A DNA stretch of 64,000 nucleotides, from the NCBI GenBank assembly GCA_017609205.1, contig JAFCEL010000001.1, positions 86,183-150,182 of the forward strand, in the 5' to 3' direction. Of the stretch, positions 13,701-16,249 are shown one piece after another. The DNA comes from Candidatus Pacearchaeota archaeon. GTDB taxonomy: Archaea; Nanobdellota; Nanobdellia; Pacearchaeales; GW2011-AR1. How positions within the stretch are numbered: the first letter of the stretch is position 1; each line of letters starts with the position of its first letter. A model generated the notes under the pieces. It was not told the origin of the DNA. It made no database searches and saw only the letters and a program-made list of their open reading frames with translations. A program made the translations under genes and the position numbers.

Positions 13701-15317
13701 TTAGATAATTATTGCCTCTGTTTTTCTGTCTTTATCCTTCTCATCGTCAAAATCAGTTACTAACGCTTCTGTTGTTAAAACCATTGATGCAACAGATGCA
13801 GCATTTTGCAAGGAATTTCTTACAACTTTTGTGGGATCAATCACTCCTGCATTAAATAAATCTTCGAACTTATCTGCTTTTGCATTATAACCATAAGTCT
13901 TATCTTTTCCATTTATCTCTGATATAACTTCAGCCTCTTCTTTTCCAGAATTTCTTGCTATTTGTCTTAAGGGCTCTTCCAAAACCCTCTTAATAATATT
14001 AACACCTATTTGCTCATCTCCCTCTAGCCTTAGATCATCCAACACTTCTTTAGCTCTATAAAGAGTAATTCCTCCGCCTGCAACAACACCCTCTTCAACT
14101 GCTGCTTTTGTAGCATTCAGAGCATCATCTATCCTCATCTTTTTTTCTTCCAACTCAGTTTCTGTTGCAGCACCAACTTTGATAACTGCGACTCCTCCTC
14201 CGAGTTTTGCTAATCTCTTTCTTAATTCTTCCTTTTTATAATCTGAATCTGTATTTTTAATCTGGCTCCCAATAATTCTTTTTCTTTTATCAATATCATC
14301 CTTGCTACCTTTTCCCTCAACAATAATTGTCTTATCACTATCAACAACAACTTTTCTTGCAGTTCCCAACCATGATTCATCATATTCCTCTAATTTCATC
14401 CCTTTTTCCTCACTGATAACTTGTCCTCCTGTTAATGCTGCAATATCCTCTAATATCTCTTTTTGCTCGTCGCCAAATCCAGGAGTTTTTACAGCACAAA
14501 CTCTTATTGCTCCTTTAATCAAATTGATTATTAACGCTGCCTGTGCTTCTCCTTCAACATCCTCTGCAATAATTAACAAAGGCTTTCCTTCTCTTGCAAT
14601 TCTCTCAAGAAGAGGAACCAACTGCTTTATGCTATTCAGTTTTTTATCTGTAATCAGAATATATGGCTCTTCTAACTCACAAACCATTTTCTCATGATTA
14701 GTAACCATATAAGGAGAAATGAATCCTCTATCAAATTGCATACCTTCGACAACATCTAAATCTGTTTCTATACTTTTTCCATCTTCAACAGTAATTACTC
14801 CATCACTCCCGACTTTTTCCATTGCTTCTGCAATCAAACTGCCTATTTCTGCATCATTATTCGCTGAGATTGTAGCAACTTGGGATATCATCTCCCTACC
14901 TTTAATTTGAACAGAATTCTCTTTTAGATAATCAATAACTTTTGAAACTGACTTTTCAATTCCTTTTTTTATTTCAAGAGGATTGCTCCCTGCAGTTATA
15001 TTTTTCATGCCCTCTCTTATTATTGATTGTCCGAGCATTACAGCAGTCGTTGTTCCATCCCCTGAATCGTCCTGAGTTTTTGAGGCAATTTCTTTGATTA
15101 ATTTAGCACCCATATTCTCAAACTTATCAATTAATTCAATTTCCTTGGCAATTGTAACACCGTCGTTAGTAACAAGAGGAGTAGAACTCTTATCTAAAAT
15201 AACATTTCTTCCTTTAGGACCGAGAGTAATCTTAACTGTATCAGCAACTTTATCAATACCTTTTAATAATGCCTGCCTAGCATTTTCACTGAATAAAATT
15301 TGTTTTGTTTCAGACAT
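13701..15317 (-). CDS. groL: chaperonin GroEL (bacterial type I, Cpn60)
   Basis: [40 protein letters not shown] and a GroEL-like length. ATG at 15315-15317. The ORF-track extension to 15329 uses TTG. Confidence 0.95.
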
Positions 15318-15318
15318 T

Positions 15319-15678
15319 TCACCATTCAACCTCCTTAATCTGATTGTTTATTAAATTAGATTTAATATTGATTAAGGTTAAAAGATTGAAATTTTTCAAT
15401 ATGAATTCTGGCTCCAATATCTTAAGTTTTGGCTTTTCTTCTGTTCCAGATACAAGATAAATATAATAATTCGAGACATCTCTTCCTAATTTCTTAAATA
15501 CAGAAAAACTTACCAATAAATCCCCTTTTTTTGAATTTATTTTTACATCTATAAACCTGTCTCCAGACTTGATATTATAACCATTCCTTATTTTGTTTGT
15601 AACTTCAGGTGTTCTTCCTTGTTTTTTTTCATATTCCAAAACCAGTTCTATTGCTTTTTTCTTATTTATCTCTGCCAT
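15319..15678 (-). CDS. DUF3883-like (PD-(D/E)xK fold) small protein inserted in the groESL operon
   Basis: [38 protein letters not shown] matches the DUF3883 pattern. ATG at 15676-15678 lies 1 nt after the upstream stop, and its own stop lies 1 nt before the groEL ATG. Confidence 0.6.
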
Positions 15679-15679
15679 C

Positions 15680-15973
15680 TTAATTATCAAAATATTTATG
15701 ATTTAATTTTCTTCCAAAACCAGAATTTAATTTTATTCTTCCGACAGTTAAAAAATCAAAACCTCCGTGATAAATCAAATTTCTTCCTGATAACTCACAA
15801 AGTTCTTCTTTTAAGAATAAACCATAAAGATTCTCTTCTTCCACATCCTTGCCGATAAAATGCAGAAAATCTCCGCAATCCTTTCCAAGATAGACTGCTT
15901 TATTTACTGGAAAATCTTCTTGCATAAAATGTATCTTTGTTCCTTCAACAAGTGATGGTATTTTACACTCCAT
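15680..15973 (-). CDS. hypothetical 97-aa protein inserted in the groESL operon
   Basis: The ATG directly abuts the groES stop (TAAATG). No motif recognised. Confidence 0.5.
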   Translation of the reverse strand: MECKIPSLVEGTKIHFMQEDFPVNKAVYLGKDCGDFLHFIGKDVEEENLYGLFLKEELCELSGRNLIYHGGFDFLTVGRIKLNSGFGRKLNHKYFDN

Positions 15974-16249
15974 TTAATCCTCCATTATTGCTAAAATATC
16001 TTTAAAATCGATTATAAGGTGTTTCTCTCCATTAATTTCTAACTCATCTGAGGAATATCCGCCGTATAAAACTTTATCTCCTTTTTTTAATGGCAAATCT
16101 TTTCCATCTTTTGTCTTTCCAACTTCCTCAACAATAGCTTGTTTTTTTTCCTCTTTAGCTTCATCTGGGATATAAATTCCTCCAGCAGTTTTCTCTTCTG
16201 CCTTTACTGGTTTTATTAATACTCTCTCTCCAAGAGGCTTAATTCTCAT
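15974..16249 (-). CDS. groS: co-chaperonin GroES (Cpn10)
   Basis: IKPLGERVLIKPVKAEEKTAGGIYIPD mobile-loop region, 91 aa. Confidence 0.9.
   Translation of the reverse strand: MRIKPLGERVLIKPVKAEEKTAGGIYIPDEAKEEKKQAIVEEVGKTKDGKDLPLKKGDKVLYGGYSSDELEINGEKHLIIDFKDILAIMED

Follow-up and report, generated by a model that had tools for sequence, protein, structure and literature searches.

A predicted nuclease-fold gene of the NOV_C/DUF3883 family and a second small gene family lie between groES and groEL in Pacearchaeota

Few gene arrangements are as conserved as those of chaperone operons, and the adjacency of groES and groEL is close to universal. Some of these operons carry their own repressor, as in hrcA-grpE-dnaK-dnaJ with its CIRCE element and dnaK-grpE-dnaJ-hspR with HAIR. 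The archaeal type I operons of Methanosarcina, Woesearchaeota and Pacearchaeota contain bacterial-type groES and groEL. In Pacearchaeota, both bacterial-type GroES/EL and DnaK/DnaJ/GrpE have been described as lateral acquisitions, and the archaeal operons that have been described run directly from groES to groEL, with no mention of inserts (Castelle et al. 2021, PMC8204110). We analyzed 64,000 nucleotides (nt) of a Candidatus Pacearchaeota archaeon (GenBank assembly GCA_017609205.1, contig JAFCEL010000001.1, positions 86,183 to 150,182; hereafter the window), where two small open reading frames (ORFs), ORF97 and ORF119 (NOVC), lie between groES and groEL. We are moderately confident that this is a four-gene proteostasis operon in which NOVC would be a member of the chaperone regulon and ORF97 an accessory. 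The NOV_C domain family and this kind of operon were already known; their combination and the ORF97 family are new. A literature search found nothing on archaeal genes that separate groES from groEL or grpE from dnaK, nor on DUF3883 in connection with chaperones.

The NOV_C domain, or DUF3883, has been placed in the PD-(D/E)xK superfamily with its function listed as unknown (Steczkiewicz et al. 2012, PMC3424549), and a DUF3883 nuclease fused to an Snf2 helicase is also on record (PMC11232893). The NOV_C/DUF3883 domains of TmtA, Snf2-fused nucleases and modification-dependent restriction enzymes have the same E...D...(D/E)xK core as most members of the NOVC clade. In those proteins NOV_C is a C-terminal nuclease domain, whereas NOVC stands alone, without an ATPase, helicase or sensor partner. 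Its setting is chaperone operons, not defence islands, and in the window it has Asn for the catalytic Asp. The archaeal Holliday-junction resolvases Hjc/Hje (PDB 2eo0, 2wcz, 1ob8, 1gef) resemble the predicted structure of NOVC in size, minimal core and order of catalytic residues, but there is no sequence-level relation, and we know of no chaperone linkage of Hjc genes.

The operons of HrcA and HspR offer an analogy, in that a small non-chaperone gene inside a chaperone operon would be co-expressed with it. HrcA and HspR, however, repress through winged-helix or MerR-type domains; NOVC instead has a predicted nuclease fold with a mostly intact site and is accompanied by a separate Lrp/AsnC regulator. 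We noticed no CIRCE or HAIR element, though no search aimed at either was made. The seg/mob genes of phages lie between conserved genes, as mobE does between nrdA and nrdB. The T-even members resemble NOVC in being small nuclease genes wedged between conserved, co-transcribed genes with minimal spacers. Compared with free-standing homing endonucleases, NOVC is constrained, has chaperone operons as its only known targets, bears a groES-type promoter motif in its stand-alone copies and has lost a catalytic residue in the window.

All four genes are on the minus strand in the order groES, ORF97, NOVC, groEL, with spacers of 0, 1 and 1 nt (our reading of 13600-16900). The TAA of groES abuts the ATG of ORF97, the TAA of ORF97 is followed by a single g and the ATG of NOVC, and the TGA of NOVC is followed by a single a and the groEL ATG at 15317. 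An independent JGI metagenome contig of 43 kb (L011) has the identical four genes with identical spacers; because it repeats the arrangement independently, an assembly artefact or chimera is excluded. In this compact genome, neighbouring genes on one strand are often 0-2 nt apart, so the tight spacing indicates operon membership and is not itself unusual. Across loci, the TAA-n-ATG junction is alike with or without an insert. Longer, TTG-started versions from the ORF list (123 and 542 amino acids (aa)) were rejected because the N-termini of homologues do not support them. We also rejected the insert as a compositional island (GC content 0.26-0.31, window mean 0.317), and an Rfam search found no RNA element in it.

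An initial annotation of the window, made from the letters alone, had given the same coordinates, gene order and spacers, and our reading agrees with it exactly. Both inserts are indeed real genes within the chaperonin operon, and their spacing would allow the translational coupling it proposed. The annotation had also named a lack of homologues, a lack of coding signal and chimeric assembly as grounds for dropping the idea. None of these applies: there are homologues, ORF119 has a clear coding signal and ORF97 a weak one, and the assembly is not chimeric. Its divergent Lrp/AsnC-type regulator is corroborated by matches to PDB sequences, and its view of a bacterial type I chaperonin probably acquired horizontally by an archaeon agrees with the NCBIfam equivalogs and the literature (PMC8204110).

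NOVC matches Pfam PF13020 (NOV_C/DUF3883) at 29.1 bits against a gathering threshold of 22.1 (E 1.1e-6), with residues 7-87 aligned to profile positions 3-90 of 91. A precomputed match to the same model is present in 18 of 20 relatives, and NOVC also matches residues 1392-1476 of the PADLOC TmtA model, its C-terminal nuclease domain. An AlphaFold2 (AF2) model using 20 relatives had a predicted local distance difference test (pLDDT) score of 84.3, and its helices (H) and strands (E), H6-19, E24-26, E36-38, E41-47, H58-70 and E71-79, form an alpha-beta-beta-beta-alpha-beta core. All Foldseek neighbours of this model are PD-(D/E)xK proteins (Hjc, Hje, PvuII, NhoI, I-Ssp6803I and D212; E >= 7e-3). 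The Hjc/Hje resolvases are the nearest solved folds, with template modelling (TM) scores of 0.55-0.60 and Foldseek probabilities of up to 1.0; the top matches, 2eo0_A (TM 0.59, E 6.8e-3) and 2wcz_B (TM 0.58), share with the model no more than the minimal common core. No sequence-level relative emerged when PDB sequences were searched with a profile, and Hjc was not recovered in that search or in Pfam at E up to 0.1. By profile match and predicted structure, then, NOVC is a stand-alone NOV_C/DUF3883 member with a minimal PD-(D/E)xK nuclease fold.

E17 and K46 are invariant in the alignment, position 44 is Asp or Glu, and Asp35 is present in most members. The window protein has the tetrad E17-N35-D44-K46, in which Asn replaces the canonical Asp, leaving the E...D...(D/E)xK motif incomplete. 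Residue 35 is Asn in the window protein, P0003, P0004 and P0007, His in P0005, and Asp in the other 15 aligned relatives; the Asn/His members form one weakly supported clade (65% bootstrap). In PD-(D/E)xK enzymes, losing this Asp abolishes or greatly reduces cleavage and spares binding. Sequence and fold thus place NOVC of the window lineage in the family, although it is probably inactive as a nuclease.

Loss of the presumed metal-binding Asp has not relaxed selection on the gene: NOVC is under purifying selection, with ratios of non-synonymous to synonymous differences (pN/pS) of 0.21-0.28 at saturated synonymous divergence, and the same holds among Asp-less members. Every copy encodes an intact protein of 114-125 aa, and the aligned members include no degenerate ones. 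A C-terminal extension (residues about 88-119) is conserved in a clade-specific manner. The window protein is basic, with an isoelectric point (pI) of 9.55; the chaperone-linked clade spans 9.3-9.8, and the outgroup L037 has 8.6. A PADLOC match of residues 46-113 to the aspartyl protease PEPT_D (E 7e-4, 18 bits) was set aside as too weak and without catalytic logic. Relatives of NOVC or ORF97 were absent from IMG/VR contigs, GenBank phages and PLSDB plasmids, and neither insert had a PHROG of note.

The neighbourhood of NOVC could be read in 13 distinct lineages. Six have groES-NOVC-groEL (the window with L011, L003, L005, L015, L024 and L039), and in L036 the gene instead follows the pair, 55 nt past groEL. 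Three more have grpE-NOVC-dnaK (L008, L010 and L035), which in L035 is part of the seven-gene-scale array hsp20-hsp20-cdc48-grpE-NOVC-dnaK. L004 has NOVC 1.6 kb downstream of groES-groEL-hsp20. Only L001 and L037 have it elsewhere, in L001 between a PDDEXK_1 nuclease and an Xer-like integrase with MGMT, and in L037, whose NOVC is an outgroup at 47-50% identity, after guaA. One Pacearchaeota clade therefore keeps NOVC in or beside proteostasis operons in at least four arrangements. Spacers at the groES/groEL and grpE/dnaK junctions range from -23 to +42 nt, and the dnaK-operon copies are monophyletic in the tree. The slot content differs even among loci that form a tight group by GroES (88-90% identical): ORF97 and NOVC together in the window, NOVC alone in L024, and ORF97 alone in L040.

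Outside this clade, distant stand-alone or fused NOV_C proteins (33-44% identical; from Candidate Phyla Radiation (CPR) bacteria, Aenigmatarchaeota, Baldrarchaeota and others) had miscellaneous neighbours and no chaperone link. Where NOVC-type genes have non-chaperone neighbours, these belong to DNA repair and recombination: the L001 genes just named, a Pur_DNA_glyco gene (3-methyladenine glycosylase, MPG) in L004, and EndoIII in the distant L019. Such neighbours hint at a DNA substrate for NOVC.

The first codons of NOVC differ between its two types. Asn/His-type genes open with ATG GCA GA(G/A) (the window around 15678, L003 and L005) or, in L039, ATG GCA ATG. These starts nearly match that of groEL, ATG GCA GA(C/T) (L004, L024, L036 and L040). 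Asp-type genes open with ATG GA(A/C/T) AA(A/G) or AGA. The likeness may be a trace of splicing into the TAA-a-ATG junction, or may reflect convergence on a favoured start context.

A promoter motif links NOVC to the chaperone genes even where the two are apart. The stand-alone NOVC genes of L001 and L004 are preceded by ATAGAAAAATTTATAAA, and the groES operons of L015, L036, L039 and L040 by (A/C/T)(A/C)GAAAAATTTA(A/T)A(A/T)A. We counted the 14-mer GAAAAATTTAWAWA over the window and 13 unique loci (161 kb) and found six exact copies, where 0.55-0.72 would be expected; none of 500 Markov resamples reached six. All six are 19-96 nt upstream of either groES (L015, L036, L039, L040) or a stand-alone NOVC (L001, L004), and a one-base variant is upstream of hsp20 in L040. 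Flanking DNA is not common to the copies; the motif alone is shared. Because GAAAAATTTAWAWA precedes both groES operons and stand-alone NOVC genes, it supports the view that NOVC and the chaperone genes are controlled in common. The motif may be a stress-specific variant of the B recognition element (BRE)/TATA element. In lineages without an adjacent Lrp gene, CAGTAAAAA / TTTTTACTG boxes are found just upstream of the groES or hsp20 promoter motif and may be a second type of operator.

In the window, the gene divergent from groES encodes a member of the Lrp/AsnC family. A phmmer search of the PDB matched it to LrpC (2cfx, E 1e-8, query residues 4-129), PH0061 (2dbb, E 1.1e-8, residues 8-146), LrpA, FL11 and others, with matches that span the N-terminal helix-turn-helix (HTH) and the C-terminal RAM-type domain; the Pfam AsnC-type HTH model on its own scored below threshold (22.5 vs 27). 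Homologues support 16385 as the most likely start; a TTG start at 16256 would leave no room for a promoter region. Orthologues with 54-74% identity are divergent from groES in L004, L005 and L024, and in L008 the orthologue is divergent from hsp20-grpE-NOVC-dnaK. We regard the gene as the candidate regulator of this operon.

A pair of inverted half-sites, GATACTTTTA and GATACTATTT, lies in the intergenic region that separates the regulator from groES, and a TATA-like TTTAAATT precedes the groES ATG by about 44-51 nt. L024 and L008 have the same half-site pair at the same distances, and L004 has one half-site; the loci with an adjacent Lrp/AsnC gene (window, L024, L004 and L008) all bear GATACTWTTT half-sites in the promoter region. 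Written out as GATACT(T/A)TTT, they are about 36-41 nt apart in the stretch that separates the Lrp/AsnC gene from the start of the chaperone operon, and they are kept whether its first gene is groES or hsp20 (the latter in hsp20-grpE-NOVC-dnaK). We propose them as a putative operator of the Lrp/AsnC regulator. GATACTWTTT was rejected as a regulon marker for the whole window, where its 2 matches in 64 kb are not above the roughly 1 expected by chance.

At the 31.7% GC of the window, stop codons are frequent, and only 3 of 100,000 shuffles of the ORF97 interior had no in-frame stop, so the frame is not open by chance. Word-indexed searches returned only a 98% identical twin. Exhaustive phmmer added two genuine relatives, P0022 (49%) and P0024 (44%), and a profile search with the family found nothing further. 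Three further phmmer matches (P0023, P0025 and P0026) are long tandem-repeat proteins with scores inflated by repetition and were discarded. The family thus comprises three known sequence clusters: P0001/P0027 (98-100%), P0022 and P0024. Across these four sequences, 28 alignment columns are invariant, among them those of DCGxFLHxIGK, YxxFLK and LNxxFGxxLNxxY. ORF97 is 49% identical between the window and the P0022 locus, where GroEL is 87% and GroES 88% identical. It differs from the near-identical L011 copy at 2 non-synonymous and 0 synonymous positions. By these comparisons, ORF97 is a real but fast-evolving gene family.

P0022 is the only gene between groES and groEL on three contigs (L040-L042), with 1-nt spacers, and NOVC was not found on the 7.5-kb contig that carries it. 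Because P0022 occupies the slot without NOVC, ORF97 is, from gene order, a second and independent occupant. Its relatives were found only in this slot, in two of two readable contexts. The AF2 model of ORF97 (pLDDT 72.6) is mostly beta-strand with a C-terminal helix. Foldseek searches of the PDB and BFVD gave nothing better than E 0.12 and TM 0.45, and a profile search of PDB sequences gave only a non-significant match to the syntenin PDZ domain (E 0.1). No family in Pfam, NCBIfam, PADLOC or PHROG matched. Two possible origins were rejected on hhalign probabilities: a diverged groES duplicate (2.2%) and a frameshifted or duplicated NOVC (0.1%).

GroES scores 132.4 bits against a cut-off of 122 for the NCBIfam equivalog NF001539, and GroEL scores 795.8 bits against 582.1 for TIGR02348, which identifies them as a bona fide type I chaperonin. 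Source names on the relatives and the archaeal neighbours Spt4, Rpb7 and S24e place the host in Pacearchaeota (DPANN). Bacterial-type DnaK and GrpE are present in related lineages.

Our preferred reading, a proteostasis operon with NOVC in the chaperone regulon, would work as follows. The operon groES-ORF97-NOVC-groEL would be transcribed from one archaeal promoter beside the divergent Lrp/AsnC regulator, and translation would pass from gene to gene by termination-reinitiation at the TAA(n)ATG junctions. NOVC, a basic, single-domain protein with a predicted Hjc-like PD-(D/E)xK fold, would be kept under the expression control of the bacterial-type chaperones. It most likely binds nucleic acid, and its ancestral form would also cleave; the substrate would probably be DNA structures or damage arising from thermal or proteotoxic stress. 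In the window lineage, NOVC would act mainly by binding, or with much reduced cleavage, because the metal-binding Asp has become Asn while selection continues. ORF97, an accessory protein restricted to this lineage and evolving fast, would be younger and would have been recruited to that slot as well.

Several observations weigh against this reading. The loci were gathered by searching for NOVC or ORF97, which favours operons that bear these genes. L015, L004 and L036 have GroEL proteins that are 79-82% identical, yet each has NOVC in a different position. In L024, a D-type NOVC falls, with weak support, in clade II, whereas GroES and GroEL of that locus are in clade I. A shifting position and incongruence of this kind would also be expected of a mobile gene. 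GAAAAATTTAWAWA probably overlaps the BRE/TATA element and could mark very strong promoters rather than stress control. Heat induction would follow from the known roles of GroESL, DnaK/GrpE, Hsp20 and Cdc48, from which we assume it. Foldseek matches Hjc only weakly (best E 7e-3) and Hjc sequence models gave no match, and we know of no precedent for a stress-induced stand-alone nuclease in chaperone operons. For ORF97, pN/pS against L040 (one pair) is 0.70, which indicates weak constraint, and the third cluster, P0024, has not been placed in a genome.

Some of these points fit better with a selfish gene, an explanation that we consider unlikely but worth weighing with care. NOVC would then be a hitch-hiking, homing-endonuclease-like gene that invades groES/groEL and grpE/dnaK junctions, its Asn/His copies would have become inactive after fixation, and ORF97 would be another parasite of the slot. 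The inserts do lie exactly between two very conserved genes, in two operons, almost without non-coding flank. NOVC position varies in close relatives, slot content differs within the tight GroES group, and one subclade has lost the catalytic Asp. Consistent with this, the PD-(D/E)xK homing endonuclease I-Ssp6803I is among the structural neighbours of NOVC, an integrase adjoins it in L001, and the L024 trees are mildly incongruent. However, all known targets are chaperone operons, with none between other conserved genes of the same loci, such as those for ribosomal proteins or RNA polymerase, and stand-alone copies bear a groES-type promoter motif, which would be of no use to a selfish gene. 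We saw neither truncated nor frameshifted copies, pN/pS stays at 0.2-0.3 where the Asp has been lost, and the virus, phage and plasmid collections searched held no relatives. The monophyly of the dnaK-operon copies argues for one relocation and not for repeated invasion. A feedback repressor of chaperone promoters, encoded in the operon and with its active fraction set by the chaperones, would explain why NOVC, like HrcA and HspR, is found within either of two chaperone operons. The motif common to stand-alone copies and groES operons fits autoregulation, NOVC is basic, its function persists after loss of the catalytic Asp, and a role in transcription regulation has been predicted for some PD-(D/E)xK families (Steczkiewicz 2012, PMC3424549). 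We nevertheless find this improbable: most members retain the complete E-D-(D/E)xK site, which is unexpected for a pure repressor, NOV_C is the sole domain in a Pfam scan, with no HTH or other dedicated DNA-recognition domain, an Lrp/AsnC regulator with conserved half-sites already adjoins many of these operons, and the shared motif may be plain BRE/TATA.

Direct partnership with the chaperonin seems to us very improbable. ORF97, NOVC or both would work physically with GroES/GroEL, whether as obligate substrate, adaptor or modulator, and would share the operon so that all are made in stoichiometric amounts; it is true that both families occupy the groES-groEL slot with coupling-compatible spacing and that both readable contexts of ORF97 relatives are in that slot. 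NOVC is just as much at home in grpE-dnaK, a mechanistically unrelated system, and is also found as a stand-alone gene, and its nuclease fold has no chaperone-related feature; ORF97 is unlike GroES (hhalign 2%) or any co-chaperone and evolves fast, which would not be expected of a tightly co-evolving partner. Because NOVC relatives are also found between grpE and dnaK, we think co-regulation likelier than a partnership specific to GroEL. The initial annotation had raised a further idea, a two-gene toxin-antitoxin or defence module that uses the operon for expression and possibly depends on the chaperone, which we find barely credible. It is suggested by two small adjacent genes with 1-nt spacing, one of them nuclease-like, and by NOV_C being the effector nuclease of some defence proteins (the TmtA match and Snf2-fused DUF3883). 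The module fails because each gene occurs alone and neither resembles a toxin or antitoxin: NOVC lacks an ORF97 relative in at least 11 lineages (L001, L003, L004, L005, L008, L010, L015, L024, L035, L036 and L039), L040-L042 have an ORF97 relative without NOVC, ORF97 matches nothing in Pfam, PADLOC, NCBIfam or PHROGs, and NOVC matches only the NOV_C/TmtA nuclease domain. The putative toxin has also lost its catalytic Asp here and is still constrained, and the pair has no promoter of its own, no SecB-like chaperone and no mobile-element association. Finally, there is a more ambitious reading, which we regard as distinctly unlikely, in which NOVC, with its restriction-endonuclease fold, would be a new kind of heat-shock component wired by a clade of DPANN archaea into both acquired bacterial chaperone systems, with ORF97 as a lineage-specific modulator of NOVC or the chaperonin. 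NOVC could then be a chaperone-titrated autoregulator that binds GAAAAATTTAWAWA, an analogue of HrcA/HspR on a nuclease scaffold, or a stress-induced, Hjc-like DNA-structure enzyme that would couple proteostasis to genome maintenance.

Table 1. Positions of the features discussed, in the window and in related loci
Feature	Sequence	Position	Strand	Basis or remark
Lrp/AsnC-family regulator	window	16385..16894	+	Pfam HTH_24, TrmB, MarR; PDB sequence matches; divergent from groES
Divergent promoter/operator region	window	16250..16384	.	Half-sites and TATA-like element; putative function, read from sequence
Half-site GATACTTTTA	window	16330-16339	+	Inverted relative to GATACTATTT
Half-site GATACTATTT	window	16366-16375	-	Inverted relative to GATACTTTTA
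groES, co-chaperonin, 91 aa	window	15974..16249	-	First gene of the operon; Pfam Cpn10 E 6e-27; NCBIfam equivalog
ORF97, 97 aa	window	15680..15973	-	Open frame beyond chance; tiny homologue family
ORF119/NOVC, 119 aa	window	15319..15678	-	Pfam PF13020; AF2 model; 1-nt spacer on either side
groEL, type I chaperonin, 538 aa	window	13701..15317	-	Last gene of the operon; TIGR02348
3' end of groEL	window	13701-13775		C-terminal tail
PIN_9 protein	window	11956-12345	-	Adjoins the 186-aa/224-aa pair
186-aa protein	window	12434-12994	+	Weak C-terminal HTH
224-aa protein	window	12991-13665	+	Faint DUF3368 (PIN-like) mark in L011
Half-site pair	L024	184-193/220-229
Half-site pair	L008	about 3749-3798
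Single half-site	L004	888-897
GAAAAATTTAWAWA copy	L001	4944		Upstream of stand-alone NOVC
GAAAAATTTAWAWA copy	L004	4925		Upstream of stand-alone NOVC
GAAAAATTTAWAWA copy	L015	3646		Upstream of groES
GAAAAATTTAWAWA copy	L036	1679		Upstream of groES
GAAAAATTTAWAWA copy	L039	3286		Upstream of groES
GAAAAATTTAWAWA copy	L040	1904		Upstream of groES
One-base variant of GAAAAATTTAWAWA	L040	5354		Upstream of hsp20
CAGTAAAAA / TTTTTACTG boxes	L039	about 3265-3285		Possible second operator type
CAGTAAAAA / TTTTTACTG boxes	L040	about 1865-1885, about 5310-5335		Possible second operator type
PDDEXK_1, Xer-like integrase, MGMT	L001	4251-6631		Neighbours of NOVC
Pur_DNA_glyco (MPG)	L004	5436-6002		Neighbour of NOVC
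EndoIII	L019	4429-5121		Neighbour of distant NOV_C
GH130	L040	4168-5265		After groEL; also in L041, L042
GH130	L035	7262-8338		After dnaK

Some further features of these loci are recorded here. The window GroEL ends in ...KTEAIII, without GGM repeats. A Gly-Gly-Met tail is absent from seven of seven full-length GroEL proteins (window, L003, L004, L005, L015, L036 and L040), which have either a window-like tail or ...KDK..ETIII. A gene of glycoside hydrolase/phosphorylase family 130 (GH130) follows groEL by 12 nt in L040 and is also present in L041 and L042; in L035 one follows dnaK by 15 nt. GH130 is a second non-chaperone family that recurs in both operon types. Convergent on groEL in the window is a pair of genes that overlap by 4 nt, encoding proteins of 186 and 224 aa; the pair is kept in L011, where the 224-aa protein has only a faint DUF3368 mark. 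From their sequences, they could be a UPF0175/PIN-like toxin-antitoxin pair.

The clade is small, genome-reduced and uncultivated, and the function of NOVC is proposed from sequence; the present value of the finding is that of a well-supported lead. For heat-shock control in DPANN archaea, on which we know of no experimental work, it provides candidate cis-elements and a candidate regulator of the Lrp type. The Asp and Asn/His variants of NOVC, which are under equal constraint, are a natural experiment on whether cleavage or binding is selected. Were the gene selfish after all, it would be a homing-endonuclease-like element that targets archaeal chaperone genes, which would also be new. If functional, NOVC would be an unrecognised member of the archaeal stress regulon and would give the large NOV_C/DUF3883 family its first physiological context outside defence.

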